Assembly (NCBI GenBank): GCA_965112155.1
Contig: OZ218099.1
DNA: 64,000 nt
Reading direction: 5' to 3' (one strand)
From: Podarcis liolepis
Taxonomy: Eukaryota
Position 1 is the first letter of the stretch. Each line of letters opens with the position of its first letter. The notes below the pieces were generated by a model that was not told where the DNA came from, made no database searches, and worked only from the letters and a program-made list of their open reading frames with translations. The translations under genes were made by a program, and so were the position numbers. Of the stretch, positions 8,136-34,417 are shown piece after piece.

Positions 8136-8394
8136 GGTAAAGGTAAAGGACCCCTGGACGGTTAAGTCCTGTCAATGGTGACTGTGGGGTTGTAGCGCTC
8201 ATCTTGCTTTCAGGCCGAGGGAGCCGGCGTTTGTCCACAGACAGTTTTCAGGGTCATGTGGTTGGCATGACTAAACCATTTCTGGCACTGTGGAACACCA
8301 TGACTGAAACCAAAGCTCATGGAAACGCTTCAAACCACCAACCTTCTGATCAGCAAGCCAAAGAGACTCAGTGGTTTAGACTACAGCGCTACCC
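8136..8394 (-). mobile_element. Sauria SINE, internally deleted
   Basis: (GGTAAA)n tail and Sauria SINE body; 10-bp TSD GCAAAGAATA at 8126-8135 and 8395-8404. Confidence 0.85.
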
Positions 8395-10700
8395 GCAAAG
8401 AATATTGCACATTTAAGGTGGGATAGATAGTTAAAGGAAGTTGTCAAGAATGTATAGGCTATACAATTGGATTACGGAAGGGGACAGTAAAAAGATACAA
8501 CTCTTGTAACCCGCTTTGTAAACCCTTCAGGCTAAATTGCATGCTTGGGGAGACTCTCTCCTAACCGTTTAGCAAAACCATTTCTTGGGAAGAGCAAAAT
8601 TTGCTAAGTTATGTGTCTATTCTACACAATACTCCATTCTGTGTTGTTGGGGTTTTTTTGCCCTGCTCTTTCATGAAAGACATCAGGGTGGTCTTCCTAG
8701 TTCTTGCCCTACCTGTTTTATCCAAACAGTCACCCTGTGAGATTGGTTAGGGTGAAAAATGATAACGGTATTAACACATAATGCCAAGTTATAGTTAATT
8801 CTAACCATGGTTTGTTGAATATACCATGAATCATAGAAACATATAAACTGCAGCTTGTTTCTCCCAAGCTTGATTTGTTTCCCCCTCTGCTCTTGCCTCA
8901 TACCTTTATAGCTGGACATATGCCTGGGGTGGCCAGATAAACCATGGTTAAGCAAGAATGCCAGGTTCAGACATAACACCAAACTGTAATTAAAATGAAC
9001 CACAGTTTGTAAGCAAACAGTAAACCATAGCATCGTATTCTGGCTTGTTGCCAGAAAACAAAAATGGTTAGTCTGCTGGGTCGGGTTCACACTTTGGCTA
9101 AATAGGCAATGGTTTTGCATTATGTGCTCAAGTCCCTTGGCTAGTCCAGTGAGCTTCACTACCAAGTGGGGATTTGAACCCAGGCTTTTCACTATTCTAA
9201 GTTTGATATTCTTGGTGGTAGTCAACTTAAGGTATACTCTGGGTAGACCAACTGATATTAATGAACCTAGCTTAGCCATATTAATTAATATCAATGAGCC
9301 TAAGTAAATCTTGGTTGAATGTCAGCCACTATTTGCTGACATACCCGCTGTTTGCCTAGGACTGTGCCTCCTGCCCCAGATGAATAGAGGAAGGGAAGGG
9401 GAGGGAAGGAGGAGAACGCATGATTTTTGAGGCCAGAATAGATGTCACAACACTTAAAATTGTAATGAGAAAGTAAGGAAAAACAAATTAATACCCGCAG
9501 TCAGTTTTGGATGAAGCATTAGCTAATGTTTGCCCAGACAGTTGGATAATTCAAGTGCAGGAGCAGAAATGCAGCAGTTGCAGTAGATCTGTAGAATTCT
9601 AATTATGAAACTGGGCTAATCTGTTTCTCGGTTAAACTATTCAAACTAAGCTCTGAGGTTTTCCTTGGCCCCCTTCTGTTGGCAGTTGGGCCATTTGTTG
9701 TGAGCGTTTTGTCTGCTAAGGTCAGTGAGTGGTCTGTGTGCTGCATTCTTTCCTGGATGCAGCTGGAATACAGACGTTGGGAAACGTTTAAACAAAAGTC
9801 AAGTTCTTATTCCGCTTGAGTGTGGAGCTCTGTGGATGCACTTGGTTACGACTGCAGTTTCCTCTCCATGAGTGATTAGGCTAAATTATTGAGGAGTGTC
9901 GGAACTGTGTGGCTTTTTTTGGAAGAGTGGGTGAGATCCGAGAAATTGGGAGAGGAGAAGGGCAGTTGTCTTAAATAGTGTACAGTACTTTTAAAATGTT
10001 CTACGAGTTTCTGGCTGGGGCAGGCTGTGAAAGCATGTTACTAGGCTTGACCATTATCATTTAGTATGCCCTGGAATGGGAGGCACAACTTGATGGAGAT
10101 GCTCATCAGTTTCTAGCATGGAGTTATCTGATGTGCAGGAGAGAGTGAGGAACACTGGCTCGGGGCTGAGTGGTTGCAGTCCTAGACCAGAATCTAGTAA
10201 TTTTCTCAGCCAGTTCAGAGTGAGACATTGAAGCAATGTATATATAGTTTATATTTAGAGCTCTCCTTTTATTTTAACATTTTATCACTTGAGTTTGGCC
10301 TTTAATATGGTTTAGATAATTTCCTCGAAATAGGATGGAAAATCAATCCGTGTAACATGCTGCTATCAATTCACTACATTTTCCCCTAGGAGGTAGTATT
10401 TATTAAGGTTTAATGATTAAAGTGGTCTTTATCTCTGCTTCATACTGATGTACTTACTACCAAAATGCACTTACTAGAGAGTAAGCTGAATTTAACATAG
10501 TGGGACTGACTTCTGAGTACACATAAGGTTGTACTGTAAACCCTCAATTTTGTTTCCTCATAAGTAGTTTTGGAATAAATGTTGCCTCCTTCCACAAAGG
10601 CATGAAAGTACAAGCTTCTCCTTGAGTGGGTTTGTTACAGGCTGGACCAGGGAAGATACTTTATGACAAAACTAGAAGGATATAGACCCAAAGATGTTTG

Positions 10701-11074
10701 CGGCCTCGGTCCAGTATACCTGAAGGAGCGTCTCCACCTCCATCGTTCTGCCTGGACACTGAGTTCCAGTGCCGAGGGCCTTCTGGTGAGAAGAAGCCTC
10801 ACTGCGAGAAGCCAGGTTACAGGGAACCAGGCAGAGGGCCTTCTTGGTAGTGGCACCCGCCCTGTGGAACACCCTCCCACCAGATGTCAAAGAAATAAAC
10901 AACTATATGACATTTAGAAGACATCTGAAGGCAGCCCTGTTTAGGGAAGCTTTTAATGTTTGACGCACTATTGTATTTTAATATTTTGTTGGAAGCCGCC
11001 CAGAGTGGCTGGGGAAACCCAGACAGATGGGTAGGGTATAAATAATAAATTATTATTAAATTATTATTATTATT
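10701..11074 (+). mobile_element. 5'-truncated L2-type LINE 3' end
   Basis: Frameshifted ORF2 C-terminal remnant (GLGPVYLKERLH..., TRQRAFLVVAPALWNTLP) followed by the gccgcccagagtggctgggg 3' UTR and a (TTA)n tail. Confidence 0.8.
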
Positions 11075-11132
11075 GCAGTCTCCAAATTGTCAAGCTTAAG
11101 CTAGAAGGATAGTCATATCGTGGCAAAAACAC

Positions 11133-11469
11133 TTTGCTAAAGGGACAGAATTCACATGGCCCAAATCTGGAAGCTGAAAGAAGTGTTAAGAGTGTTAGGA
11201 TCGAGGAAGCGAGCCAAGAGGGAGCTCTCCGACTTGCGCCTCATTTTAAATGGGGCCCAGCCATGCCTCCCCAGCCAGCGGATTGGCTGGCTGGCGAATG
11301 ACGTGGCCAGGAACCTCCAAGTGACACTGGACTTTGTCCCCCGCCCCCTTAGGGGAGTGGGCGGCCATGTGGTCCACTGCAACTCCTCCCCACTGGGAAG
11401 TGGAGCGGATTTGCTAAAGGGATGGAATTCACATGGCCCAAATCTGGAAGCTGAAAGTAGTGTTAAGAG
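11133..11469. repeat. 60-bp direct repeats (11133-11192, 11410-11469) flanking a 217-bp GC-rich insert
   Basis: The two copies of tttgctaaaggga..gaattcacatggcccaaatctggaagctgaaag.agtgttaagag are 57/60 identical. Confidence 0.9.
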
Positions 11470-12877
11470 GGCAGGTCAAGTGCCAAGAAATGGGGGGGGG
11501 GGGTTGGGGCGAGCAAGGCAGTCTGCTGGCAGGAGCAAGGGAAAACACAGGTGTGATTCAGAGAACAACCTGTGATGGTGGTTGCAATGATGGAAGAGTG
11601 AAGCAGAATGTTTGGATGGGACCTAGGTTAGGTGTTGGCGAATCTGGTACTTCTGGGCAAGGCCAAAGAGCTATGGTAGAATTGTTCACCAGGTCCCAGA
11701 ATTGCCCTGATGCTGCAAGATTGCTGCTGGCAAAAGTGCTTCAGTGTACAGGATTTTTATTCAAGGTGAGGAACTGATATTTGCATCTGCCATATGTAGT
11801 ATCTTTGTCTCAGAGGAATGTGCTACCGCTGTTGTTCTTCCCTCTGATCAGTTTCTTGGCAGACGCCCAACCTTGGATCAGAATTATGTCCGTTTGCTGA
11901 GTATTTCATTGTCTGCAGTTGGGGCCATACTATATATAATGATACAGAAAACTAGTGCTTTAAGCAAGAGTCTGTCCCATTCATATGTAAAGCAGGGGAT
12001 ACAATTTAAATCTCAAAAGGGGCATAGGCAAGGAGTTGCTTGACCCTTCACCTTTCACGTATCTGACCTTGGAGAAGTGTCGTGAGAGGATTCTTGACAT
12101 AACATTGAAATTGAGATTTTCTCTTTTTGTCATATGCCACTATAAATGGATCTGTTGAAATGCCACTCTGATGTACTTCTTTATGCAAATGCTAAGCAAG
12201 TGTTCTGTAAAGCTTTGAAATTTAACGCTGGATTGCCCAGTGTTGCATTTGTAGTTTCAATCTGTTTCAACAATATGGTCGTAACCCGTTATTTTGCAGT
12301 ATGAAAGAGGATCACAAGGACTTGTGTAGGCAAAATGTCTCTTAAATTCAGCTATGTTTTCTGCTTGTAATACACTTAGTTCTTACATTAGTTCCTGGAA
12401 AAAGTACGTTTTCTGAGCCATTGAGAATGATCTTGGAACTTTCCATGGCACAGTTTGCTCAACTGAATACTAAGAAGAAGCAGTACAATTTCTGTGTTGA
12501 CCATTATTTTTTTACCTAACTTATAGAATTTCTCTCTCTCCTCCCTCCTTTCACTGTAAATGATTTCAAAGCACCTTGCAACAATAAAAACAAATAAATC
12601 AGACAAAAATGCACTGTCAAAAAGCATTTAAATCACACGTATAGAAACAGCAGAGCCAGTATAAACAGTATCTAATTTTTTTAAGAGAGATGTTCAATAC
12701 TACTACAACCATGGGAGGATAGGACAGATTTTTCCTCGCTCCTGAAAGGTAACTAAGATGGTGTTATGCAGACATGTCTAGGAGGAGAACTGGCTCCAAC
12801 AAGTCTAGTATCCATCCGGTGACTGGGAATGTTATCATATAAATTCTGTAATTACTTTGAATTTCTCTACACTTTAG

Positions 12878-13067
12878 GATGAACTTTCTGATGTTAGCCA
12901 AGCAGGTTCCAAATGTACTACGCCAGTCTTAACTGCTGCTTCAGATGTCCTTGCGCCTGCTGAATCTCCCTCGAAAGACCACAAGGAAGGGCTTGAGAAG
13001 GACTCCGATATAGGGAACAAGAACATTGAAGTGCAAGTAGCCCAAGAAACAAGAAATGTGTCTATTG
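12878..13067 (+). CDS. SPAG9: SPAG9 exon DELSDVSQAGSK...IEVQVAQETRNVSI
   Basis: ctttag|GATGAA...TCTATTG|gtaag; 190 nt, phase 0 to 1. Confidence 0.95.
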
Positions 13068-13758
13068 GTAAGTTCCTAGAATAGATTGTGTGGCTAGAGC
13101 CAATACTATGCACACTTTAAAACTGAATTTTTTTTCTGTCTTACGTGTAAATATGTGTGCGTACTAATTTCCAGAAGAATAGTTATTGATTAATATTTAG
13201 AGGAACGGGTGATGTTCTTGATTAATATTTAGGAAACATGGTGTTCTTGTGTAATAAGGTGCAAGTATGTTTGGGTGTGGTTATCACACTGGAGTTGGGG
13301 ACAAAATTGTCCCCATGGCTTCCAAATCCATTGTATGGTCTATGAAGTATAAATATTCATACCTCCTTTATGTACTTAAATCAATAAAATGTCCTTAGAA
13401 CAAATTAATAAAATGTTAAAGATCTATAAACTGGAAAAAAACCTATTTCTTATATGGAAATGTGTTTTGTGCAGAAAGTGTCTTCTTTGTGAAGTCACCC
13501 TTGCAGTAAAAAATTACTGTAACATTTAAGGGGCAATGGAGTGGCCATTTAACTTGTTGCCAGTGTAATTTTATAGTTCAGATGTCTGTTCAGCCGTGAA
13601 TCTCTCTGGTCTTTGGCAGTGCTTAATCTCATAATTTAGCCATTGCTTCATTTGGGTTGCTGTGGAATTAAAATAAGATACATAGTAGTTCCCTTAAGCT
13701 CTTGGGATAGGATGAAAAAGAAATGGGAATAGATAGTTACTTCTGATCTGTTCCCCAG

Positions 13759-13858
13759 GTTCTAATGAAAATGAAGACAAATCTGAAGTTCAGGCAATCA
13801 TCGAATCCACTCCAGAGCTGGATATGGATAAAGACCTTAGTGGATATAAAGGGTCAAG
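13759..13858 (+). CDS. SPAG9: SPAG9 exon SNENEDKSEVQAIIESTPELDMDKDLSGYKGS
   Basis: ccccag|GTTCT...TCAAG|gtattt; 100 nt, phase 1 to 2. Confidence 0.96.
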
Positions 13859-14390
13859 GTATTTTGCTGAACACTTCTTATCAGTAAAGATCTTCGGGTG
13901 GGGGAATGTACAGGGCAGGGTTCAGCTTAGGTTGTTGCATGTGTGGAAGAGGTCCATTCATGCACTGGGCCTTTCCCCCCACCTCCTGTGCACCCCCATA
14001 CCCCCTAGGCCTGCTCCGTATGACTGGGGAAACCCTCCAGAACAGGTTTAAGTGAAGGCGGGGGTGGGAGGAAGTCCCATTGCGCAGCAGACCTTGTTCC
14101 CTGCATGCATACTTAATGCTATGTTGAATTCCACTTATAAGCTCCCAACAGTCTTGTTGGGCTGATGCCAGGACCCCAAAGGCCCATACGTGGCCCACGT
14201 TGCATAGGACGCTTGGGAATGTCTGAAGCAATACAGTTGCCCACTGTGCTGCTGCTCTGCTTTTGACTGCCTGTCCGCCCAGTGCAAAGGGTCCTGATCT
14301 GCCGAGAAGATCAGAGCAGTGTGTTATGCAGCAGTCATTGTCCTTTTACTCAGGGTCTTCCAGGAGAGCTAAGAACAGTGTGTGTGAGAG

Positions 14391-14691
14391 CAGTGGCGAA
14401 GCTGCATGCTCTGCTACTGGGGGCAGAGAGCAGGCGGGGGTGTGGCTGGCGCCCTGGAGGGCGTGGCATGTTGTCCGTGGGGGTGTGGCACGCATCCCGG
14501 GGGTGTGGCACACCGCCTGTGAGGGCGTGGCTTGCGTTCTGGGGGCGTGGTGTGCCACCTGTGGGGGCATGGCGTCTGGCACGCGGGTGGGTGTGCGGCG
14601 CATGTCCGGGGAGGCCGCCGCGATGTCACCCTATTGGAATAGTGGTGCCAAGGGTGGTCTGCGCCCTCCGCACCCCGTTCCTCCGCCAGTG
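14391..14691. mobile_element. GC-rich non-autonomous hAT-like MITE with internal ~21-bp GGGGYGTGGC repeats
   Basis: Imperfect TIRs CAGTGGCGAAG / CTCCGCCAGTG; decayed 8-bp TSD tgtgagag/caagagag. Confidence 0.6.
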
Positions 14692-15005
14692 CAAGAGAGT
14701 CTTGTGCTGCTTCTGATCTGCTTAAGTGCTCCAGAATGCAAGGGCAGAGGGCTCTTGGAGTGAGAAGTTAAGGAGGGCTGAGCTCCTACTGGTGCTGTGG
14801 GGAGGTGGGCCAGAGGAAAGGAGTGAAAGCCAGTCAAGTGGATGAAAGGAAGAGTAACCCAGGTCACGAGCTGTGCATTTGGGGTAAGTGGGGAGGAAGC
14901 ATTACCTTGACACATGTCTCTGCCCCTTGACAGTTAAGCGCACCCACTGGTAGGTTTCTAGCACATAATTCTAGAGACACACCTGACTGTAATGCCTGAC
15001 TTATA

Positions 15006-15145
15006 TTGGCGGTTGCCAATGTGACACCCTCCAGATGTTGTTGGACTACAACTCCCATCATCCTCAGTTGTTGGCCATGCTAGCTGAGGGTTTATGGATG
15101 TTGTAGTCCAACAAAATCTGGAGGGCACCACGTTGGCTACCGCTG
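15006..15145. mobile_element. Foldback MITE (ggactacaactcccatc family)
   Basis: Inverted arms ccctccagatgttgttggactacaac / gttgtagtccaacaaaatctggaggg. Confidence 0.7.
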
Positions 15146-15312
15146 CTTATTGCTGTGTTAGCTTTTATGGGCTGGAACCCACATTGTCAGACGCGTGAAG
15201 TGATTTAGAAGACCATGTGCCCACACACATTGACACTCATTTGTGTGCGTATATTTACATATTTTTAAAACTTTTATTCTCCTGACTTTTAAATTCCAAT
15301 TCTGTTGTGCAG

Positions 15313-15434
15313 CACACCTACCAAAGGCATAGAGAACAAAGCATTTGATCGTAATACAGAATCACTGTTCGAAGAACTATCTTCTGCTGGCACTGGTCTG
15401 ATAGGGGATGTGGATGAAGGAGCAGACCTACTGG
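15313..15434 (+). CDS. SPAG9: SPAG9 exon [40 protein letters not shown]
   Basis: gtgcag|CACACC...CTACTGG|gtaagt; 122 nt, phase 2 to 1. Confidence 0.97.
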
Positions 15435-18197
15435 GTAAGTGGGTATTCTAAAAAAAATCCTGTTGATTTCCCTCCATTTCTTCAGCTTAAGAACTGTGAA
15501 GGTAATTGTTCTGTGAGAGTTGAGGAATGAAGTTGTTGAGAAAAGTATTCATGTTCAGTACTTAGTTTTAAGTAAGTTTCTTCTATATATAAAATGCTTA
15601 TTAATTAAAAATGGTGAAGTTGAAAACATTCAGTCTCCTACATGAGGTTTTTACCAAAGGGAGTCTTTTGACTATTTATTCAGATCTCTGCTTTAGTGCA
15701 GCCCTGGTTTCACTCAGAAGTAAGTTCCATTGAGTCCCTGATAGGTTTGGGTAAGGTTTGAGTGCAGGTGTAGTAGCTACTCACTAGCTAAGAAGGAAGA
15801 AGGAAGTCATGTGACATGGGGAGGATATCTGAAACAGCCCCCAGAACCACCAGCCTGTACAATAATATGCAGAGGCACAAGACTACCTAAATATTAAGTG
15901 AATCTAGCATTTGCTCTGAGTTTTTAAGGACTGGTGAAATAACCAGTTTAATTTGGTAAATAGCAAGCTGAAAATAGAGCCCTCATTGGCTGCTCCTGTC
16001 TCTTTCGTTCATCAGCCTACAAGGGCAGGAGGGGCCTCATTTCTGAAATACATTCATCTAGAGGTCCCTCTCGATACCCTTTCTAACAACCCCCATCCAG
16101 ATCCATTACAGCCTAGATGATTTTGCCAGATCGGAACTTCTCCACCAGCTATAGTTAAAGGAGATGAGCCCAGTTCCACAGTCAGTTCTGTTAAAGAATG
16201 TAAGACTATCCCCATTAGGAGGGTGCTAAACCTACATAATAAATAAACCTAGCACTGCTCAAACTTTGTAGATTCCAATTTGATGCAAATCAAGGCCCAA
16301 TAGCAGTTTGGTGGGCTGGTTCTTGCAGGCTGTCAGCAGATGTCTTTTGCAGTGTCAAACATTCGCATCATATGGAATCAGTAAGCCAGATGCCTCTATA
16401 GCAGCCCTATACTCCACTGTAAGAGGGGCACATTTTGTAATGTACACTATTTCCCCAAGCAGATTTTCTATTTTGGGTCACGAAGAAGACCAAAGAGGCC
16501 CATTTAAAAGGATCAGAAAAAGGCAAATGTTTGTAATTGCTAAATATTATTTTGGATAGTGAGCCTAAGATTCTAGCTAGCCATGGGCACAATAGAAGAT
16601 GAAGGTTTGGTTACTGAGTGGAAAAACTCAAGCTGAATGGGATTCGCCTGCCCCTCTCTCTCCTGTGCTTCCAGAAAAGTCTCTAGAGGGTCAGTGGCCC
16701 CTTCTGAAGAGCACGTGATGGGCTGCAGTGGGAAGAGGGAATCGCCCAAAATCAGCTGTAGGCCAAGTTTGCAAAATGTCATATTTGCAGAACTACAAGC
16801 GAGACCTCGAAAGCAGATTTAAATTCAGCAAATGGAATAGTAGTCTATAAGTACTCACAGAAGGAAACAATGTTGACAAGGGAGTGTTTCCAGCTGATCG
16901 GGAAGAAAAATAGACAACTACCCAGTTGTGTCGCATCTCTGGGATGGTTGCCATGACTTTGTGTGAAAATGTCAGAATTGTTCAGGTTAGCCAGAATCCT
17001 CACTTCCTTTTAGTGTACATGCCTGAACTGTGTAACCCAAGCACAAGCATTAAAGGGCCAGGTGGTCGAGCTCAACTGCCGTGCTCCCCCTGATAGAGCA
17101 CATATGTGTGCCTTCTCCATACCACACACTCCAGGTTCTGTTGAGCAATTGAGGTAGGCCAATATCACTTGGCAACTGCGGCTAGTGGGATTGCTGTTTT
17201 GTCTGTTTCCCTATGGCACAACTTCATTTTTATGCTACAATGTCAGCACAGCACGGTATATGCCAGGCACCGCTGCAGTCACAGGAATGAAAATAAAGGT
17301 TTCAGTAGTAGTTCTGCTCTTTCTGGAGTTGAGCAGGAAACATGCCCTGGTATAGCCCAGGTGCCAGGATTTTTTTATTTTTTATTATTGGAAGGTAGTT
17401 ACCCTAGTTACAAAACTCTGCATGTAGCCTCAGCTAGAATTATGCGTTTCAACAGATGTGCTGCAGATACTCAAGTACATTTTCTTCTCTTTGTGGTGGG
17501 CAATATAAATTTCATTCATCTATTTCAAACAGCATTTATGATTTGACTTTATTTAAAAATTAAAAAAGCATTACAAGTATTTGGCTTTCGAAAAAGGGGG
17601 GTCACATATGTAGCTTGGTGAATAGCATCAGTCTTCTCCATTCGTTGTCCTCTGAAATTAAGTTGGCTGATTTGAATGAATATACGATGGACAGCATTAA
17701 CTAGTGAAATGGAGAGTCTTGACTCTACTGATGTCCTTTTAATGGGTTTATTAATGAGTTGCTTTTAAAGCTCTTGATGTCTGTTTTAAGAGAGGGTTGC
17801 AAAGACAACTCGCATAGCCCGGATTAGGGACGAGGAACCTGCTACCCTCCTGATGTTGGTGGAGCACAGTTTCCATCACTCCTGACCTTTGGCCATTGTG
17901 GCTGGATGGGAATAGAATCCAACATTTGAAGGGTAGGAGGACCCCAGACTTTAGCCTGGATCTTCTAGGATTTGAAGGGAAACGACTGAATGCGGCAGAA
18001 TAATCCTAATGTGTTTATACAGAAGTCCTACTGAATTCAGTGGGACCCAGTTTGAAATAAGTGTGCATTTTGTATGAAATGCCTTGTTTTATAGCGTGAT
18101 ATACAATATATCTGCTGTTTGACTTATGGAGCATGGTTCCACAATGTTAGTTTACATGGGATTCTCCAATTTTCTTTCTCTTGGGCTGCATACCCAG

Positions 18198-18209
18198 GGG
18201 AATATTCTG
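18198..18209 (+). CDS. SPAG9: 12-nt microexon GGGAATATTCTG, adds (G)EYS
   Basis: ttttctttctcttgggctgcatacccag|GGGAATATTCTG|gtgtgt; phase 1-1. It matches the GEFS insert I recall after GADLL in the paralog JIP3. Confidence 0.8.
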
Positions 18210-18864
18210 GTGTGTATGCTTTTTATATTTTCGAAAGTGATTGTTTTGAAGTTCAATATTCTTGGCTGCTGCTATCATAACATATGTTGTTATTTTGGTT
18301 TTTATCCTGCTTGGTATCTCCCCCCCCCCCAACCATTTTGTTTGATAATCGTTTCTCTGTTAGGGACACCAGCAGTTAAAAGTGTAGTGCAAATAACTCA
18401 AGTCTATCTCTACGAACAGCACTTTTTGAAATCCTCAAAAAACTCAAACTTCAGCCACTTTTGAAGATAAGACCCATTATTTTCTACAGCTATAGGCAGA
18501 TACTGGCCCAAGTTCTGTCTTGTGAAACCACCCAAACATGGAGAAGCAGTTGGAAATAAGAACAGGGTTTGAAGTATTTTGTATTCTCATTTTGTATCCT
18601 CCCTGGGATCTTGGGATGAAGGGCAGTATAAACAAACAAACAAACAAACAAACCAGCAAACCTTCTGAAACCATCATGACTGTTTGCTGATCACTGAGTA
18701 CAGGGCCCCCTTCTTTTGTATTTAAAGCACAAGTACATGTCAAACGCATTGTAGGATGTAAATTGAAGAGCTGGCTAGTTGGAGGGCATGAAGAATGCAT
18801 TGTGATGCTGCTATCCTGGCAGAATGAGGGCAGGGTTCCTTTCTCCTGTGCAGCAAGTGCAGTA

Positions 18865-19034
18865 CATAGGAAGCTGCCTTATACTGATTCAGACCACAGA
18901 TCCACCTAGCTCAGCATTGGCAGCAGCTCCTCGGGGTTTCAGGCAGAGTTCTCTCCCATCCCTACCTGGAGATTGAACCTTCTTGAGACCTTCTGCGCGC
19001 AAAATAAGTGCTCTGCCATTGAGCTGCAGCCCCT
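18865..19034 (-). mobile_element. tRNA-derived squamate SINE (Squam2-like)
   Basis: The reverse complement starts aggggctgcagctcaatggcagagcac (A-box) and ends agtataaggcagcttcctatg. Confidence 0.7.
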
Positions 19035-19789
19035 CTCCAACAGGGAGACTTCTTGCAGGTGGATTTTGATCTGTGCATCTGCGCCAGCACTGTGAGAGCG
19101 GCCACATAAAAGCGAGATACCTTGTTTCCTTGGCATCAGTCAGCATTCCATGTGTTTTAGAGACTATGATCCTTATATCTCTAAAGAGTACATTCAGTAT
19201 GCTTAAGGAATCGAGGAGCAAGATATTGGCCTTGTTCCAGTGACTTCGTCCACTACTCCAGTGGGTGCACAGAGCTCCCCTCCTTGTGCAGGTACTTACC
19301 TGTTCATTTCAATAGAGTGGGCAGCTTGTGGTGTAAATATATGGACTTGCCCTCCCTGCCTCCTGCCAGGTGAGCAGTGCAGCCCATTTGCTGTGGAGAA
19401 GCACTAAATTACTACGTGCTTATTCTGTTTGAGTTTTGCAAATACATGTGTAAATAGCAAATACGTTTCAACGCTATACACATTTTAGCAGGGTCTTAAT
19501 TTTCCTAGATTTGCCCAGAAACCTGTAACCTTTTATTGGCCTATGTTCTAAGATTGATGTAAGAAGCGAAGGCCAGTTTAAATGCCCAGGGTTTATTTAT
19601 GGTGAGCCATCAAGAATGTAGCTATGACATTGCCACTTCCCCAAAATATTATTGGAATGTTATAACTTTATATACCTTTCAGAGGTCTGAAATGTGTAGC
19701 TGTTGGTATATTATAAGCTGTAAAGGTCATCCCCATAATGGACACTTTAACAAAGTAACAGCTGCCAGTGTTTGTAACACCATTTATAC

Positions 19790-19925
19790 CAAGCATCCCC
19801 AAACTCAGCCCTCCAGCTGTTTTGGGACTACAATTCCCATCATTCCTGACCACTGGTCCTGTTAGCTAGGGATGATGGGAGTTGTAGTCCCAAAACAGCT
19901 GGAGGGCCGAGTTTGGGGATGCCTG
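19790..19925. mobile_element. Foldback hAT-type MITE
   Basis: Near-perfect ~55-bp inverted arms; perfect 8-bp TSD ATTTATAC at 19782-19789 and 19926-19933. Confidence 0.9.
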
Positions 19926-20164
19926 ATTTATACCAACAAACCATGTACGGTCTCCACTGTCCCTTCCCCAAAAAGATACTGCAGTGATGGGAAAAGAACA
20001 TTTTCTGCCTTGTGGAAACCCTTAAGCATTTGGGACTTTAGGAAAAGAAAAAGGGGTGATGTGGGACAGGTAAATTATGTGTGGCTTGGAAAGATTAGAT
20101 GGGTGGGTGTGTCCTTTTGGCTTTGCCTTGGGGTCATTAAGTTAAATTGGGCACTACCTTATTT

Positions 20165-20166
<2 letters not shown>

Positions 20167-20203
<37 letters not shown>
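20167..20203. repeat. (GT)n microsatellite
   Basis: Read directly from the sequence. Confidence 0.95.
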
Positions 20204-20205
<2 letters not shown>

Positions 20206-20827
20206 CACACCCACCCACACCCACGCCTTCATCAAAAAGAACCAAGGAAAGTAATTCAAAACGAATCAAAGAAAGAAGTGCGTGGCTGACATGCAACCCA
20301 TAATTAACTGATCAAATTCCCTATTTTAAAATGTGGTGGTGGCCATGGGCAGGTGGCTTCAAGAGGCAGTGGCAGGAGGTGGGATTAGTCAGTCTTGAAG
20401 GGTGTAGGTCTTTCTACAACCTCCCTGGCTAAATGGAACCCCTATTTTCAGCAGTGATACCTTTCGGGATTTAGATTCCTGGGGACAAACTAAAGAAGAA
20501 AGGCTGTTGCTTTCATAGCCTCTTTACAGGTTTCTTGGAGGTTCCAATGTTAGAGATGGGATGCCGGACTAGAGCAATGCTTGGTCCACTGAGGCTTCTC
20601 CTAGATCTTGACCATTCTTTTTGACACTACTCTCTTTTAACTGTTTATGTCTTACTATATGAGTCATTTTTAAATCAGAACATAATTTGGCTTCAGGTGT
20701 TTACTGCTGGCTTTGCTTTGAAATCACTCACATCTCTAGTATTGTGCTGTACCTCACTCATACTCCTCTCCTTACATGAAATATTTCTTCTTCTTCTTGC
20801 TCTGCATGGGATTCATGGGCTTTAAAG

Positions 20828-20842
20828 ACCATAATTTCTTTG
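20828..20842 (+). CDS. SPAG9: 15-nt microexon ACCATAATTTCTTTG, adds DHNFF
   Basis: ttcttcttcttcttgctctgcatgggattcatgggctttaaag|ACCATAATTTCTTTG|gtaagg; phase 1-1. It corresponds to the VRDDFF insert I recall before GMGKEV in JIP3. Confidence 0.85.
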
Positions 20843-21506
20843 GTAAGGTATCATCTCATTTGGGGAACATTTGCAAGGGCGTTGCATTGTCTTTGAGCTT
20901 TTTCATGTTCTGCATCTCTTCTCTGTGTTGTGACACGGCTTTCAGCATCAAATATACGTAATTTAAATTTGTAGTGTAAACTTTAATTGATTTTCAACAC
21001 TTGTTTTAATACAATTTATTTTCTGCAAGAGCAGTTAAACATTGGATTCTTGGACTGAAAATATTTTGCATTGTTCTTCTGGGCTTCAGAGAGCCTACCT
21101 GTTGAACACTTTAAAAGTCCAGCAGCAAGATTTAGTTTTGAAAACTGTTGTTTTCAGCTATTAAGGAATCAGGTGCTTCAATAAACTCCAAGAACTATCC
21201 TACCTGCATAGGTTGTTCTTCCATTTTTATATTTTATTGACTGTTTGACAGGTGGCTTGAGAAGTAGTATGCAACACTATTAAATAAATGATTGAATACA
21301 TTTCAGTGGAGGAAGCTAATCTATGTGCAAGCAGTGCAGTTCCTTCCATTGAAATTAATGTGGAGTCCCACTTACATAGTAGCCCCACATGAACCTCGGA
21401 GCAGCATACACTAAACTCTGTATCAGGGTACATAAGTTTGAGAACTAACACTTGCACTAGTAATTTCAATGTTTTTAAGCTGTTTACTCTGTTCTGTCTT
21501 TGCAAG

Positions 21507-21564
21507 GAATGGGTCGTGAAGTTGAAAACCTTATCTTAGAAAATACACAACTGCTAGAAACCAA
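21507..21564 (+). CDS. SPAG9: SPAG9 exon GMGREVENLILENTQLLETK (start of leucine zipper II)
   Basis: tttgcaag|GAATGG...ACCAA|gtgagt; 58 nt, phase 1 to 2. Confidence 0.97.
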
Positions 21565-21782
21565 GTGAGTAACTTTTTCAGCTGTTGAACATAGAATTGC
21601 TTCTGCTAAACTTGTTTTAAAATTGATCATGTGACTGGTTACTGGTTCATAAAGGATATAATCAATTATTCCCAAGGCCCTTGTTCCATATATCTAGGTG
21701 ACAGATGTAGGTTAGTTGATGCTTTAGGTGTTTGCACTATTCTGATCTCTAATGGTTAATATAATTAATATAATAGGCTGTC

Positions 21783-21913
21783 TAGTCATGCTGGCCACAT
21801 GACCCAGAAAGCTGTCTCTGGACAATCGCCAGCTTCCTCGGCCTAAAGTGCCGCAGCCCCATAGTCTTCTTTGGCTGGACTTAACCATCCAGAGGTCCTT
21901 TACCTTTTACCTT
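21783..21913 (+). mobile_element. Sauria SINE 3' fragment
   Basis: tagtcatgctggccacatgacc...ggtcctttaccttttacctt tail. Confidence 0.8.
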
Positions 21914-22440
21914 ACATATTCCTTTAGTTCATGAAAGGTACAAAATTACAAAATGCACAGGGAATGTCAGAACACTAGAGCTTGGGTTTCTTAAGTGTAG
22001 CTGACTGTCAATAGCTTTAGGACAATCAGAAACAACTCTCCCTCGTTCACTAATTTGTTTGTTCCCAAGAGCAGTGCTTTTTTTCTCTTTAAAAACGTTT
22101 AGGGGTGCTCTCATTTTCCTACTTGAAATACTGCCCCTCAATGAGGCCAAACTTAGATTCACAAAATGTTTATGGGTATGCGTACCCCCCCCAAAAAGCA
22201 CTGTCCAAGATGATCTGCTTAGATGTCGCAGAGCTAGACTAGTTTAGGTGAGGCTGACGCTTTTGGGGCGCAGGGTTCACCAACCCTCTGGGGCCACACA
22301 CAGTTGTGGACATGGCCAAAAGAGGGCGTGGCCACTCAGCACTCTCACATGTGCGCAGACACCCACAGGCATACTGCTCCCCCCCCAGGTGTACAGATCA
22401 GATAAGGAGGTGGGTTATTGCCCAGTACTGTGTTCACTCA

Positions 22441-22699
22441 CTGTATTTTTCACTCTATAAGACGCACCAGACCACAAGACGCAACTAGTTTTTGGAGGAG
22501 GAAAACAAGAAAAAATATATTCTGAATCTCAGAAGCCAGAACAGCAAGAGGGATCGCTGCGCAGTGAAAGCAGCAATCCCTCTTGCTGTTCTGGCTTCTG
22601 GGATAGCTGCGCAGCCTGCATTTGCTCCATAAGACGCACACACATTTCCCCTTACTTTTTAGGAGGGAAAAAGTGAGTCTTACAGAGTAAAAAATACAG
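22441..22699. mobile_element. Tc1/mariner-type MITE with an internal 35-bp hairpin
   Basis: TIRs ctgtatttttcactctataagac / gtcttacagagtaaaaaatacag; right flank TA. Confidence 0.8.
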
Positions 22700-23173
22700 T
22701 AATCATTTTTGCTGCTGTCAAATTTAGAGGGGTCCTGGGGGGCAATATTAGACACCCCCCACCAAAACTGAGGGTTAGACAACCCTGGGCTAGTCCAATA
22801 TGGCATATTATACTATTTGCCGAATAAAAACAAATGTTGCAAACTATGTTTTGTGCAAGCTGTGAATAGAAACCAAACACAAAATATGAATCTGGGGCAG
22901 CCAGTGCCAACGTAGTGCTGCGGCAATTGTTCCATCAGTGCAAACATTTCAGCTGGCCAGATGTGGTGATGCACCCTCCCCATACTGCTCTGGGGATTCT
23001 CCTGGAGGAAGGCGTACTGCAGGCTTCCGCTAGTGGGACTCATTAGTTTCATACTGCCCAAAGCTATTTTTGTAAGTGGGGGGAGGGGTATAACTCTTTG
23101 TCGCTTGAATTCCTAGGATAGGATTGAAATAACGGTCGTAAAAATAAATAGATCAATTTCTGTGATACTGGTA

Positions 23174-23527
23174 AAGGTAAAGGGACCTCTGACCATTAGG
23201 TCCAGTCGTGGCCGACTCTGGGGTTGTGGCGCTCATCTAGCTTTATTGGCCAAGGGAGCCAGCGTACAGCTTCCGGGTCATGTGGCCAGCATGACTAACC
23301 CGCTTCTGGCGAACCAGAGCAGCGCACGGAAATGCCATTTACCTTCCCACAGGAGCAGTACTTATTTATCTACTTGCACTTTGACGTGCTTTCAAATTGC
23401 TAGGTGGGCAGGAGCAGGGACCGAACAACGGGGGCTCACCCCGTCGTGGGGATTCGAACCACTGACCTTCTGATCGGGAAGCCCTAGGCTCTGTGGTTTA
23501 ACCCACAGCGCCATCTGCGCCCCTCAG
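23174..23527 (-). mobile_element. Full-length Sauria SINE
   Basis: tRNA-like head (GGTTCGAATCC B-box on the minus strand) and (ACCTTT)n tail; 12-bp TSD GTGATACTGGTA at 23162-23173 and 23528-23539. Confidence 0.92.
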
Positions 23528-23576
23528 GTGATACTGGTAGAAATGACCTAATTACAGCTATCTTTGTTGTCTTCAG

Positions 23577-23729
23577 AAATGCCTTGAATGTGGTGAAGAA
23601 TGACTTAATAGCAAAAGTAGATGAGCTCACCTGCGAGAAGGATGTGCTGAAAGGAGAGCTGGAAGCTGTAAAACTGGCCAAACAAAAGCTTGAAGAGAAG
23701 AACAAGGAATTGGAAGAAGAACTTAGAAA
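23577..23729 (+). CDS. SPAG9: SPAG9 exon [21 protein letters not shown]...ELEEELRK (LZII)
   Basis: cttcag|AAATGCC...AGAAA|gtgagt; 153 nt, phase 2 to 2. Confidence 0.97.
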
Positions 23730-23822
23730 GTGAGTGTAATACGCATGTTTCATGTACAGCAGAGAAGATCTTACCAGGGATTCTGCAACTAACTTCACTG
23801 ATAACTCTTGCATCTTGTTTAG

Positions 23823-23874
23823 AGCCCGCGCGGAAGCAGAAGAAGCGAGGCAAAAAGCAAAGGAAGACGATGAT
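23823..23874 (+). CDS. SPAG9: SPAG9 exon ARAEAEEARQKAKEDDD
   Basis: gtttag|AGCCCG...GATGAT|gtatgt; 52 nt, preceded by a 93-nt intron. Confidence 0.96.
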
Positions 23875-24279
23875 GTATGTAATTGCATTGGCAGCTTTTT
23901 ATCTAATCCCGTTTCTTATTTGTGTAACATTGCTCTTAAAATACCCTGGCCTTTTGAAAGAGTTTTTGAGAAGAAGTGTGCACTTGTCCTTTCTTTATCT
24001 GCTGCAACTCCTCTTGCAGTTGTAGAGTGGACTATGACATCTGGGGGATGCTGAATTAGTCTGCTTCCTCCACCCCACTCCTCCTTTGGATACCAAGGGG
24101 CTGTGAGGGGCTGCTTCCATTGTTGGCACTGTTTCTTCCCGCCCATTACTGCACTTTATATATAGCCATAAACACCTGTAAATTATTTCGAAACGACTGT
24201 CTTAGGCCCTTAGCTCAGTTCATTGGTGATGGAAGAGAAAGTAACTCCTCCTTAAACTGTACATAATTTGCTACGTTAA

Positions 24280-24477
<198 letters not shown>

Positions 24478-24510
24478 TAGTATTTTACAGTTATGGTTGC
24501 AATGCTGGAT

Positions 24511-24512
<2 letters not shown>

Positions 24513-24553
<41 letters not shown>
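24513..24553. repeat. (CT)n microsatellite
   Basis: Read directly from the sequence. Confidence 0.95.
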
Positions 24554-24558
<5 letters not shown>

Positions 24559-24700
24559 ATTGCAGTGGGTTGGACTAAATAATCCTTTGGTCCCTTCCAA
24601 CTGTACCAATCTGTGATTCTGTGAAACTGCTGCTATTATTGTAGTGCATTGTGGAGAGTAGATTATTTTTAACAGTAAAAGGGGGCAGGGCCATCAAAGG

Positions 24701-25138
24701 GGAAGGGCTGTAGCCCTTCTACATACTTCGCATGTAGAACATCCCAGGTTAACTTCCCAAGTAGGGCTGAGAGAGAGTCCTGCCTGAAAGCCTAGAGCAG
24801 CGGTTCTCAACCTGTGGGTCCCCAGATGTTGTTGGACTACAACTCCCACCTTCCCTGAGCTCTGGCCTTGCTAGCTAGGGGTGATGGGAGTTGTAGTTCA
24901 ACAACATCTGGGGACCCACAGGTTGAGAACCGCTGCTCTAGAGAGTTGCTGCCAGTCAGGGCAGAAAATAATGAGCCAATGTTTCTCAAGCTTGTGTGTC
25001 CAGCTGTTGTTGGACTACAACTCGTATCATCCCTGACTTCTGGTCCTGCTAGCTAGAGATGATGGCAGTTGTAGTCTGGCAACAGCCGGGGACCCAGGTT
25101 TGAGAAACGCTGAGCTAGATGGACCAGGCAGCTTCCTA
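24701..25138 (+). mobile_element. Squam2-like SINE interrupted by two foldback MITEs (24798-24935 and 24977-25112)
   Basis: The SINE pieces rejoin once the MITEs are removed. MITE1 TIRs are cagcggttctcaacctgtggg/cccacaggttgagaaccgctg with TSD gcctagag/ctctagag. Confidence 0.8.
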
Positions 25139-26126
25139 CCCTCCCCACCCATTGCTTAGCTCTTGGCATTTCCACCCCACCCACCCAAAAGCTGGGCACA
25201 CATTTAGTATCATATCTCTGAATAAAGAGATGGTGCTTGGCAGACAGACTCCAAGGAGATGATCTGCAGCAGTAGGAGGGGCGTAGTGCACCTCTCACTT
25301 TGAACTTCTTCCCTAGGCACTCCTGTACTTTTAACATCTCATTTGACTGCCACCTAATGGTTGGATGTGATTGCTACAGTTTAGTTTTACTACGGAAAGA
25401 TATTTAGACCTCTTTGTGACTAAGTTGACTTGTTTTGCATGAGCCACATTCTACCATGGAGCAGTCCCCGTATTCCTTGCACATGCAGCTTTTGCAGCCA
25501 TAATGCTTGGTACTTCCTCTTCTGAAATTATTTTGTACACTTGGCTGTTTGAAACTGCTTTCCTAATGCATGCATGAGGTGGACAAAACCGTCATCGAGC
25601 AGTGGATGATCTTGTCAGGAACTTAACCTGTAAAATCGGCAGTGAACAAAAAAACAGATTGAAAAGCACTTGATGCCCTTACACTGTTTACCCTTCATCA
25701 GATATATGTGTGTGTGTTATACCCTTCACCAGATATATGTTTGTGTGTTTTTAGGGGATGAGCGGTCAAAATAGTAACTTGAATTTTTAGAATATCCAGA
25801 TACTAATTTTGTTGAACAGTAATCTAACTTCATGTACAACTAAACCCAGAACAGGTTTAGAGGGCATGTGGCAGATACACAGGAAGAAGTGAAGAATGGA
25901 AATGTCTTTCTGCTCAAACAGGCCTTGTTCTGCACACACATGCCCCACTTAGCACTATGTTAAATTGCACCCTGTTTATTCAGCAATCCCTCCCCACCCA
26001 CCTCATCAATTTAATAGTATTGTATCTTGCAATCAGACAAGAGCCGTTTGCTACTTTGATGTGTCGTGCAGAGCATTCTAGGTCATCCTATTGCTCAGCT
26101 AATTAGCTTTTGATTTTTTTCTTCAG

Positions 26127-26183
26127 GGCATCACGAGAAAATCCAGCCATGCAAGAGAAGAAGAGATCAAGCCTTTGGCAGTT
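26127..26183 (+). CDS. SPAG9: SPAG9 exon ASRENPAMQEKKRSSLWQ(F)
   Basis: cttcag|GGCATC...CAGTT|gtaagt; 57 nt, phase 2 to 2. Confidence 0.96.
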
Positions 26184-26293
26184 GTAAGTACTGAAACGCA
26201 ATCAGATGCTGGTATTATGCACAAAAGCCTTTTTTGTTTCTTTACTGCGCAAGGAACCAATAACAACAAACCTGTTTTCTCTTTGCCATCTAG

Positions 26294-26305
26294 AATGCCA
26301 ACTGG
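26294..26305 (+). CDS. SPAG9: 12-nt microexon AATGCCAACTGG, changes WQFFSR to WQLMPTGFSR
   Basis: cctgttttctctttgccatctag|AATGCCAACTGG|gtaaga; phase 2-2. Same position as the VPTR insert I recall in mammalian SPAG9. Confidence 0.8.
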
Positions 26306-27758
26306 GTAAGACTGACCTTAAAGACAGATTGTAAGATGCATCTTGCAATGTTGGTTATGCACTTGGCCAAGAAACATAACTGCCTTAATCTAATTGTGGC
26401 ATTAAAAAAAAGAAACCAGAATTCTGACACAATAGTGCAGAGTTTTGTTAGCAGCTGTTCTATGAATATGAAAGTAAACTGAAGTTTGGGTAGCTTTTGG
26501 TGTGGTTTGCATATAATTTCAAGTACCCCAGAACTTGGTGTGAGAATTTGTGAAGTGCTAATTTATGTTCCGTGTTCTAAACGTAATTACTGAAGCCAAA
26601 TGTGAGAGAGTACTAAAATTGTGAGACATAAATTATTGTGTGATTAAATATTAAAATCTTGTGGATCCCAGAAGTTATTTTATTTAATACTTTTTGCGGT
26701 TTAAGATTTAATAGAAATCTTTGGGCTCCTGTCTAAATAGTAGTGAATCTGCAGGACTTGGATGTGAAGGTGCTGGATTCTTGTGGAATTGTGTTTCTTT
26801 TACCTTTATTGTAGTTCATATTCTGAACTGAAACCAATCTTGTCCATACCTGCCTTTTGCTGTGGGGAAACAGAATTCATTGAAGTTACGGATCCTCTAT
26901 ATCTGGACTCATAGTCTGGTAGTCTAGTAAACTTGTACTCTGTGGCATACGCATGATATACACAATGATATTTAGGTTATATGAAATGCTTTGGGCAAAC
27001 CATCTGCAATCCTTACAACAATCTTGTAGGCTATGCCAGATTTATCTCCCTGTTATAAATAATGGTGAGATGGAGGCAGCATCCTGCCTAAGGAACATTT
27101 ACCAAGCTCCGTGATGAGTTGTGTGACTTATGGAGCAAAGCTCATGCTTTTAATCACTATGGCACATCAACTCAGATAATGATCAAACTGCTTGTGTGCC
27201 TATAAGTTTTGGGGAAACTATACTGTTTATCAATGCTTCAGAGCCTGAATTACTGAGTGGGGTTGCCTATGGTGGCCTTAACTATCTCGGGTCTAGAAAT
27301 TTGCTATACAGATAGAGAAGCATTTCAGATTTTCAGGTACAGGAGTCCAGCCCACCCTGGGACCTCAGGATGAAGGGCAGGTAATAAAAGATGGAAATAA
27401 AAGTAAATACATGAAAATAAAAATAGAAGCCAGCATCACTTTTTTTTTGGTACCAGCCCTGTATTTTATAGAAAGCTGTTTTTAACACCACCAGAGCATT
27501 CTATAGCCCCTGCATAAATGCCAAGTCTTTATCTTCATTCTTGGCCTGGATGTGCATGGAATAGTTATTATGAGTGTTGCAAGCGTAATGCTGCTGTTCT
27601 GATGGTGTGAGCTGTGTGGGACAGTTAATGGCTGCTGTGTTTGGGCCCATTCTTTTCTTACTACGTTTCCTTACTCATTGCTGTACATTTGAAGCCAGTT
27701 TGGCTTTTGGGTGTGTCTGTGTACTCACATGCTTCTACTTTTTTTTTGTGGTCTCCAG

Positions 27759-27932
27759 TTTTAGCAGACTGTTCAGCTCATCAGGCAATACTGCTAAGAA
27801 ACCAGAACCGCCAGTTAATGTTAAGTACAATGCTCCAACCTCCCACATTACTCCATCAGTCAAGAAAAGAAGCAGCACTTTATCCCAGTTACCCAGTGAC
27901 AAATCAAAAGCCTTCGATTTCCTCAGTGAAGA
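27759..27932 (+). CDS. SPAG9: SPAG9 exon FSRLFSSSGNTAKKPEPP...KAFDFLSE(E)
   Basis: ctccag|TTTTAGC...GAAGA|gtaaga; 174 nt. Confidence 0.97.
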
Positions 27933-29650
27933 GTAAGACTTGCTTTGCTTATACAAACTAAAAGTATGCCAGCAATATAGAATTATTTGAATATATCAGC
28001 AATGCCAGCATGTATTGTAGTAGAAATATCAAAACCAGGGTTCAGGTTGATCAAACCTTGAAGTATTGGAATAACAGATAGTAGCTGTTGGATTTTTATG
28101 GACAAAAAGAAGACTGTGTGCTTAAATGTGGTAGCCTCTGTTGCATAACAGTTACAACAATTTATTCAACTTATTATGCTTGGGGGCTGCATAACTAGTT
28201 AGCATGCCATGGCAGAATCTTGCTTGTTCTCAGAAATATCCTCGCCCATATTTATCTAGTTATCTGGTCCAAGCATGGAATTAAGCAGTACCCTTGTCCG
28301 TTTTGATACTTCTGTGTAAAATAACCCATGATATCCACACAGCACACACTAATGTGGCATGTTGCCTTTGGGGAGGGGTATACCTTAAAGTATAATACCC
28401 TTTACTGCCTTGAACTAATGTAACTTGTGCTTAAAATCCCTCAGTGCCTTTCAGCACTGTTTTTCGATTCCTCAACAGTGTTTCCATTCACACTGCTCAG
28501 TTTGTATGTTTTGCCCAGGTAGAGCTTTTGTTAATTGTGTTTGCAAAGTTAGCATGAATTAGAGGAGCCCAGAAGCGGATGTCACCAGTGCTCTGATGTA
28601 GCTGTGGCTGGCTCCTCCTGGCACAGTGAAAGGTGCTATAATCTATGCAGCACTAAATGGTGTAGGACCAGAGCAGTTCAGGCACAGTCTCCTCCATTGG
28701 TACCCCATTAGGAACCCTATAATCTTATTAGACCAAATGAGCCAAGAGAGAACTGAACTGGGACATTTGAAAAGTTTGCCAGGATATGCACAACCTCCTA
28801 ACAACTTTTGAAACCGCAAAAAAGTAGCCCAGCTTAGTTTCAACAAATATTTCCACAAGCAAAAGAATGTGGTTGTGGGGTGAACTGGGGGGCAGGAAAG
28901 GGCTGTTTTCCTCTCCCATCATAAAACTACACCGACCAAGACCAGTCAGTTCTATACTAACTGAAGCCTCCTTACAGTTTTGGGAGGCACCTTCATGTAG
29001 AGAACATTATAGTAGTCTATCCTTTAGATAACAGAAGTCTGAATCAGCATTGCCAAGTCCTCATCAAATAAAAGTGTTGCTGTCCTCTCTTCAGAGATTG
29101 GTGGAAGGCATCCTGGGTTTCCAGGTGTAACCAGAAGCCTCTTAAGGCTGTTAGTGTGAGAGATGAAGGGGTGGAATGGAAAATCCTCTCCATGATTTGA
29201 ATTCCCAAATCCTCAGGTCATATGGCCTGATTGTTACATTAGAGAACCCCCTTTGGGTAGAATACAGAATATGGGTAATTTAAAAAGACCTTCAAATGAA
29301 AGCTTTCCACGATACCAGTTTGGTCGCAGCATCAGACGTTGCTTCCCCCTCTTCATCCAAATATTTTACCAGATGCAGACTTCAGCAGCAGGTTGTGCCA
29401 GAGAGCCATTCTGCCCTAGAAACCTTAGAAGCATTGTGCTGACGGTTTCTCACTGAGAGAAAAAAACAAGTACCTTGAAGGAAGTATGGTGTCCGGGGAG
29501 TAATACAGATTTCACTTGCGTATTAACTTTGAAAAACCTCTTCTGCCACCTCCTACATAACTTTGAAAAGTTTTATTTTGGGCTAATGGGGATTGGAAGG
29601 TATAGAGGAACTTGGAATTAAAAAAAAAAGTGTCCCTCCCTTTTGCCAAG

Positions 29651-29780
29651 GTCTGAGGCCAGTCTTGCCTCACGTAGAGAGCAGAAGAGAGAACAGTACC
29701 GCCAAGTGAAAGCCCATGTTCAGAAGGAAGACGGTAGAGTGCAAGCTTTTGGTTGGAGCCTTCCTCAGAAATATAAACAG
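29651..29780 (+). CDS. SPAG9: SPAG9 exon [16 protein letters not shown]...[11 protein letters not shown]
   Basis: gccaag|GTCTGAG...AAACAG|gtactg; 130 nt. Confidence 0.97.
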
Positions 29781-30072
29781 GTACTGTGTTCATCCCTGTT
29801 CATGTGTTTTAGTTTGGGGATATTGTGGTGGCAGGTCACTGAAGGCATTTTCATTTTCAGCAAGGTGGGAAACCTGTAACCCTCCAGATTCCATCAACCT
29901 CAGCCAAAACATGGAGCTATTTAAATACCTGTGCAGAGATTATAATGCCTACAAATTGCCATATAGAATTATTATTATTAATTAAATTTCTATACCATAC
30001 TTCATCTGAGGATCACAGGACAGTTTACAGTATAAAAACACAAAAATGCATACTATAGAAAGGAAGAAAAAC

Positions 30073-30073
<1 letters not shown>

Positions 30074-30119
<46 letters not shown>
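30074..30119. repeat. (AC)n microsatellite
   Basis: Read directly from the sequence. Confidence 0.95.
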
Positions 30120-30120
<1 letters not shown>

Positions 30121-31758: not shown

Positions 31759-31854
31759 GTTGTAAATGGTGGTGGCCAGGGGGATAACAAAATGAAGAAC
31801 TTACCTGTGCCTGTTTACCTAAGGCCACTTGATGAAAAGGATACATCCATGAAG
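31759..31854 (+). CDS. SPAG9: SPAG9 exon [32 protein letters not shown]
   Basis: ttttag|GTTGTA...ATGAAG|gtacac; 96 nt. Confidence 0.96.

Positions 31855-34416: not shown

Positions 34417-34417
<1 letters not shown>

Follow-up and report, generated by a model that had tools for sequence, protein, structure and literature searches.

Conserved, probably retinal and neural cassette microexons of SPAG9/JIP4 in the lizard Podarcis liolepis that likely alter the hinge between the Spindly motif and leucine zipper II

Introduction

JIP3 binds dynactin p25 through a Spindly motif, LYHEL, and its leucine zipper II (LZII) rests on the pointed end of dynactin, from which it detaches upon Arf6 binding (Singh 2024, PMC7615804). 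The site bound by kinesin light chain (KLC), residues 433-450 of JIP3, overlaps that bound by ARF6 (PMC6224480). In the paralogous gene SPAG9, which encodes JIP4, a 15-nt exon is listed as a retina-enriched microexon (RetMIC) in four of four species, with PSI values in retina, neural and other samples of 73.7, 5.3 and 1.0 in human, 54.7, 2.7 and 0.1 in mouse, 42.4, 11.7 and 0.7 in chicken, and 80.4, 6.1 and 0.4 in zebrafish; a 12-nt exon of zebrafish is given there as 27.0, 1.2 and 0.1 (Ciampi 2022, PMC9303857). In the eyes of srrm3 mutant zebrafish the PSI of the 15-nt exon falls from 60.4 to 14.9 and that of the 12-nt exon from 13.7 to 3.8, and the human 15-nt exon, which does not respond to MSI1 in that data set, adjoins M392-G393-R394-E395 of PDB 2W83 (PMC9303857). 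The main text of that report does not discuss SPAG9. Expression of SRRM4 raises the PSI of the SPAG9 15-nt exon from 0 to 96.8 (Head 2021, PMC7935315). The mouse 12-nt exon, MmuEX0044508, is recorded as neural and is not classed as eMIC (SRRM3/4)-regulated in Table S2 of Torres-Mendez 2022 (PMC8797185). An 18-nt exon of JIP3 climbs in inclusion from 0 to 0.92 over zebrafish neural development (PMC12626420). Other small alternative exons of SPAG9 appear in published tables, namely the 12-nt MmuEX0044509 of mouse and the 39-nt HsaEX0061193 of human. The MicroExonator supplements hold no match to the SPAG9 gene name, and the accessible parts of PMC5693031, PMC7498679 and PMC13719587 specify no SPAG9 microexon.

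A 2026 preprint names syd/SPAG9/MAPK8IP3 as a microexon hotspot, points out that it lies next to LZII and suggests that kinesin-1, dynactin and ARF6 are affected (10.64898/2026.09.05.749416). Its case in Drosophila, the 18-nt exon DmeEX0009788 of syd, adjoins LZII, is neural and is eMIC-sensitive. The idea that such an exon tunes motors is thus already in print for fly syd, and the functional hypothesis is the one that arises for JIP4. The preprint infers independent origins of the fly and vertebrate exons and reports the fly exon as conserved only in hoverfly.

Results

We analysed a window of 64,000 nt from Podarcis liolepis (contig OZ218099.1 of assembly GCA_965112155.1) that contains the following features.

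1862..48795, + strand: SPAG9/JIP4 gene portion, about residues 166-1335 of a lizard JIP4 isoform, mapped exon by exon
15313..15434, + strand: upstream SPAG9/JIP4 exon, with LFEEL inside and GADLL at its end
18155..18197, + strand: acceptor flank of the 12-nt exon, with a UC-rich tract, TGC at -11 and a 10-nt word common to the flank of the 15-nt exon
18198..18209, + strand: microexon A, 12 nt, encoding GEYS, AG before and GT after, phase 1/1
20785..20827, + strand: acceptor flank of the 15-nt exon, with a pyrimidine tract away from the AG, TGC at -30 and -25 and an RBFOX-type hexamer at 20803
20828..20842, + strand: microexon B, 15 nt, encoding DHNFF, AG before and GT after, phase 1/1
21507..21565, + strand: downstream SPAG9/JIP4 exon, beginning GMGREVEN, where the LZII helix begins

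Judged by its protein matches, the host gene is SPAG9/JIP4. The upstream exon matches SPAG9/JIP4 proteins at 93-100%, and the exons of the window are mostly 80-100% identical to lizard JIP4, with lower identity to a JIP3-type protein. One further match in the same genome, on contig C15 at 65%, is the paralogue MAPK8IP3. Together, the protein matches, the exon-by-exon mapping and the separate JIP3 locus bear out the initial annotation, which had called the gene JIP4; its placing of the two exons directly before LZII is also supported.

Both small segments fit the definition of a microexon (no more than 27 nt, AG/GT borders, a multiple of three, no stop), and all four combinations are open and in frame: ADLL-GMG, ADLL-GEYS-GMG, ADLL-DHNFF-GMG and ADLL-GEYSDHNFF-GMG. 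The coordinates, AG/GT borders, phase 1, junction peptide ADLL-GEYS-DHNFF-GMGREVE and four in-frame combinations that had been proposed for these exons were all reproduced from the window sequence. A TGC close to the acceptor had been claimed for both, which is correct for the 12-nt exon (-11) but not for the 15-nt exon, where the nearest copies of TGC lie at -25 and -30; the usual SRRM3/4 UGC window lies about 2-20 nt upstream of the 3' splice site.

Note that splice signals by themselves are weak evidence here. In the microexon-bearing intron, 151 segments of 3-30 nt between AG and GT are in frame and free of stops, and a crude splice score ranks the 12-nt exon second in the intron and places the 15-nt exon outside the top 25. 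Homology, by contrast, singles out both exons. Among 36 twelve-nt candidates, the best match to the 12-nt probe from MAPK8IP3 was the 12-nt exon of the window (17 of 20 positions including the donor, the next best reaching 11), and among 24 fifteen-nt candidates the best match to the 18-nt MAPK8IP3 probe was the 15-nt exon (17 of 23, the next best reaching 13). The top crude splice score of the intron belongs to a 15-nt AG..GT segment at 16675-16689 that has a TGC upstream; none of the inserts in homologues contains its peptide, and it is therefore unlikely to be an exon. An identical 10-nt word stands upstream of each microexon, at 18155 and 20805, and has no other + strand copy in the window; a word of that length was common to 9 of 2000 random pairs of acceptor flanks. 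The shared word could be a regulatory site in common or the trace of a duplication.

The paralogue carries a corresponding pair of exons. In the MAPK8IP3 of the same genome, a 12-nt exon encodes GEFS (C15:17122958-17122947) and an 18-nt exon encodes VRDDFF (C15:17120290-17120273), both at the junction equivalent to that in JIP4 and with the first six donor bases identical to those of the JIP4 exons. The two pairs agree in junction, phase, order and donors, and 9 of 12 nt are identical in exon A; they differ in the length of exon B, 18 nt in JIP3 and 15 nt in JIP4, and in the Phe that JIP3 has where JIP4 has Tyr. Both JIP3 microexons are included in the human JIP3 reference sequence studied by cryo-EM (PDB 8PR2), the chain of which (8PR2_B) confirms the JIP3 insert sequence that the initial annotation had given and that the paralogue of the same genome also matches. 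Because matching exons stand at the same junction in MAPK8IP3, homology to the JIP3 insert and an ancestral origin, as had been suggested, are supported, and the microexon pair would predate the JIP3/JIP4 duplication.

The same inserts are found in annotated JIP4 isoforms of other species. An unbiased first search listed 120 proteins, 39 of which do not span the junction; the insert is present in 12 and absent from 69 of the 81 that do. Among 44 cluster members, Lacerta and Hemicordylus isoforms included, 10 have GEYS, 3 DHNFF, 4 both and 27 neither, and 98 further cluster members comprise 35 with inserts, 60 with none and 3 that do not span the site. An additional 115 proteins, every one of them with an insert, came from a search that favoured the insert by design; this set contains 33 proteins with GEYSDHNFF (from birds, rodents, cattle, gibbon, macaque and baboon), 38 with DHNFF, 38 with the teleost form VEYSDLSLI and 6 variants, such as GEYSDRNFF of a turtle and DHSFF of bichir. 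All four splice forms are present among the annotated JIP4 isoforms of other species, and insert-bearing isoforms in the database come from lizards, snakes, turtles, birds, mammals (gibbon, macaque) and fish. Thus, the lizard segments are almost certainly genuine exons, the counterparts in this species of two cassette microexons that are conserved in SPAG9/JIP4. They are catalogued exons found in one more species, the exons themselves being already known.

Since isoforms of many vertebrates carry both peptides, the exons are neither generally hidden nor a relic of lizards. The initial annotation had held that automated annotation easily misses such exons, and yet lizard, bird and primate isoforms are annotated and the human 15-nt exon has a VastDB entry, HsaEX0061188; it had also described the switch as one retained in lizard JIP4, and the same peptides occur in JIP4 isoforms across jawed vertebrates. 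That human JIP4 lacks the insert is true of the single human protein compared, but not of the human gene as catalogued. Within JIP4, the Tyr of the 12-nt cassette is constant from fish to mammals. In percomorph/teleost spag9a, cassette B has drifted to DLSLI, DFSLI or DLSLL, and the percomorph DLSLI means that FF is not universal. A hydrophobic pair before GMG is kept in teleost spag9a, in the skipped form (LL) and in the marsupial form (FL); the 12-nt-only isoform alone loses it.

The pairing of published events with the lizard exons relied on the gene, on exon length and order and on the residues to either side, and not on DNA alignment. On these grounds the 12-nt exon has MmuEX0044508 of mouse and DreEX0008316 of zebrafish as its likely orthologues, which are likewise 12 nt long and lie in the equivalent intron upstream of a 15-nt exon. 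The 15-nt exon is likely the orthologue of HsaEX0061188, MmuEX0044507, GgaEX0010439 and DreEX0008317, with which it shares gene, length, insertion point before M-G-R-E and order after the 12-nt exon; they differ in species only, the retina PSI being known from the orthologues and the lizard exon from DNA alone. According to the published tables, the two 12-nt orthologues disagree with one another, that of mouse being neural and non-eMIC and that of zebrafish being retina-enriched and partly srrm3-dependent. By analogy with these orthologues, we think it very probable that the lizard exons are skipped in most tissues, with the 15-nt exon included mainly in retina and the 12-nt exon in neural tissue. 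The combination of a retina-enriched 15-nt exon with a 12-nt exon that in mouse is neural and non-eMIC argues against one pan-neural switch. The SRRM3/4 control that had been proposed for both exons stands for the 15-nt orthologue, given its responses to SRRM4 and to loss of srrm3, and not for the 12-nt exon of mouse; conversely, the description of both as neural microexons suits the mouse 12-nt exon but not the 15-nt exon, the neural PSI of which is about 5 in human.

Reads from four runs of a related organism (tissue unlabelled), mapped to the upstream and 12-nt exons only, showed no splice junction at the 12-nt exon; with a repeat swamping the tables, this result weighs neither for nor against its use. 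The mapped reads were dominated by high-copy transcribed repeats in the intron between the microexons, at about 18860-18970 and 19800-19930, which are probably interspersed repeats.

Motifs upstream of the 15-nt exon allow a proposal for its regulation. The RBFOX-type hexamer at 20803 (-25 of the exon), one of two such hexamers in the 6-kb intron, contains the nearest UGC. Upstream of retinal microexons RBFOX, NOVA and ELAVL motifs are enriched, and downstream MSI1 UAG motifs, as trends rather than strict rules, and RBFOX, NOVA and ELAVL have been suggested to repress such exons in other neurons (Ciampi 2022, PMC9303857). Downstream of the lizard 15-nt exon there is one UAG in 150 nt, which is not above background, and near the lizard MAPK8IP3 18-nt exon we found no RBFOX hexamer, and no UGC within 100 nt. 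We tentatively propose a competition in which SRRM3, acting through the upstream UGCs, would drive inclusion of the 15-nt exon, repression in ordinary neurons would come from RBFOX bound to the hexamer that contains the nearest UGC, and photoreceptors, having little RBFOX, would include it.

Alignment places the inserts in the protein. LFEEL of the upstream exon aligns with the Spindly motif LYHEL of JIP3, so the insert sits between the Spindly motif and LZII. The link between these two elements is 19 residues long without an insert and 23, 24 or 28 residues long with inclusion (28 with both exons). The start of the KLC site lies 17 residues beyond the insert, making a direct effect on KLC binding unlikely, and in the crystal chains of the KLC and ARF6 complexes the alignment does not begin before GMG. 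AlphaFold2 monomer models of two bird isoforms, one with both exons and one with neither and from different species, start the LZII helix at GMG in both cases, which does not support the idea that the insert extends the helix. In the both-exon bird monomer the insert is coil, with a pLDDT below 50, and is thus predicted to be flexible. Note that in the cryo-EM model of JIP3, made with the insert present, LZII is given as residues 406-495 (PMC7615804); by our numbering these residues include the JIP3 insert, which may therefore be helical in the dimer.

Discussion

Taken as a whole, it is likely that the two exons are conserved retina/neural cassette microexons that alter the hinge between the Spindly motif and LZII of JIP4. 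Inclusion would lengthen this hinge and would bring an acidic/aromatic motif, FF replacing LL, directly before the coil. The docking of LZII on the dynactin pointed end, or its lift-off from there, may then be altered while ARF6 holds the cargo, and the microexons would tune coupling on the dynein side and not the KLC site itself. For this specific mechanism, which draws on the alignment, the models and the analogy with JIP3, the odds seem to us close to even, if slightly adverse. A literature search of incomplete coverage found no binding or motility test of vertebrate SPAG9 isoforms. JIP4 is a ubiquitous motor adaptor of lysosomes and endosomes, and the exons would give it an isoform enriched in photoreceptors, with the insert in the one hinge that recent dynein-dynactin structures open to testing.

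The main rival to a role in the hinge is that the inserts are short docking motifs for some partner, independent of dynactin geometry. The inserts contain acidic-aromatic patterns, E[YF]xS and DN[FY][FY], and conservation of their aromatic and acidic residues reaches from mammals out to insects and sea star, beyond the needs of a pure spacer; moreover, the segment is predicted to be disordered and the JIP4 Tyr is constant from fish to mammals. The 12-nt-only form reads Y-S-G-M, which resembles YxxM or Yxx-hydrophobic, a pattern of short docking motifs. Nevertheless, JIP3 has Phe in place of this Tyr, the percomorph DLSLI diverges, motifs this short are frequent by chance and no partner has been identified, and we hold this reading to be rather unlikely. 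It also seems improbable that the exons form one pan-neural SRRM3/4 switch that chooses the motor by directly changing the binding of KLC or ARF6 to LZII. The canonical UGC that the 12-nt exon has at -11, the fall of the zebrafish 12-nt exon in srrm3 mutant eyes (PMC9303857), the rise of the JIP3 18-nt exon during zebrafish neural development (PMC12626420) and the same possibility as raised for fly syd (10.64898/2026.09.05.749416) would all suit such a switch, but the 15-nt exon reaches only about 5% in human neural samples (PMC9303857), the mouse 12-nt exon is not eMIC-classed in the published table (PMC8797185), and the KLC site, like the aligned part of the KLC and ARF6 crystal chains, begins past the insert.

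Two further readings concern whether the exons matter or are used at all. Microexon deletions in zebrafish mostly have minimal phenotypes, and deletion in mapk8ip3 gave only a mild change in brain activity, unconfirmed by qRT-PCR (PMC12626420), as one would expect of exons that are real and regulated yet have little effect on the protein. We consider this improbable in view of peptides conserved over jawed vertebrates and in both paralogues, and of the fly, where knockout of the syd microexon leads to late hyperactivity and fewer offspring (10.64898/2026.09.05.749416). That Podarcis liolepis has here no more than fortuitous AG..GT matches, or relics that are no longer used, is very improbable indeed: the 151 in-frame candidates, and the failure of the four repeat-swamped runs from a related organism to yield inclusion reads for the 12-nt exon, the one microexon covered, are outweighed by peptides identical to annotated lizard, bird and mammal isoforms, by intact splice sites and by a match to the paralogue exons that no other candidate in the intron equals.

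Counterparts of the pair can be sought in invertebrates. Of 147 new distant homologues, 31 could be anchored by pattern, and 9 of these have a motif of the type D-N/T-aromatic directly before GM[GS], the rest being vertebrate, skip-like or unclear. Seven sea-star isoforms carry VDPSEFS and VMSPDNFY, which are separately optional and stand in the vertebrate order. The fly protein has GEYASS and then ANDNYF before GMG, and both motifs recur, likewise ordered, ahead of GMG in the beetle, water flea, priapulid and nematode orthologues. Seven named taxa, hand-picked by eye and with exon boundaries inferred from the sea-star isoforms and not from DNA, were scored. In all seven the last six residues match VRDDFF, with only 0-3 of 528-1288 hexamers of the same protein matching better; a match like cassette A exceeded all control windows in five of the seven, was weaker in the nematode (reached by 3 of 115 windows) and was absent in the mite (44 of 91). 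By peptide comparison, then, a similar peptide stands at the equivalent junction in protostomes and deuterostomes. A resemblance of invertebrate cassette B to the end of the upstream exon was rejected, with scores of -1 to -6. The alternative exon of C. elegans unc-16 is 84 nt long and is called exon 16, and it was thus not equated with the JIP4 microexons.

These peptides look homologous, and we lean, by a little, toward one ancestral bilaterian microexon pair instead of the published convergence. The fly syd exon, which we infer from its length and place to encode ANDNYF, would then be orthologous to the 18-nt exon of JIP3 and the 15-nt exon of JIP4, and JIP4 would have redeployed its copy to photoreceptors, possibly via the RBFOX site that overlaps the SRRM3 UGC. 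Alternatively, selection may have favoured the same motif convergently. A literature search, again of incomplete coverage, found no statement of homology between fly and vertebrate microexons; figure 5j and the data sets of the preprint may bear on the point. If the single origin holds, what was presented as a showcase of convergence among neural microexons would instead be a rare case of conservation, automated calls of exon orthology would undercount ancient microexons, and the switch in the hinge of this dynein adaptor would itself be ancient. An extra acidic stretch stands between the two motifs in sea star, water flea, priapulid and copepod, and it is optional across the sea-star isoforms.
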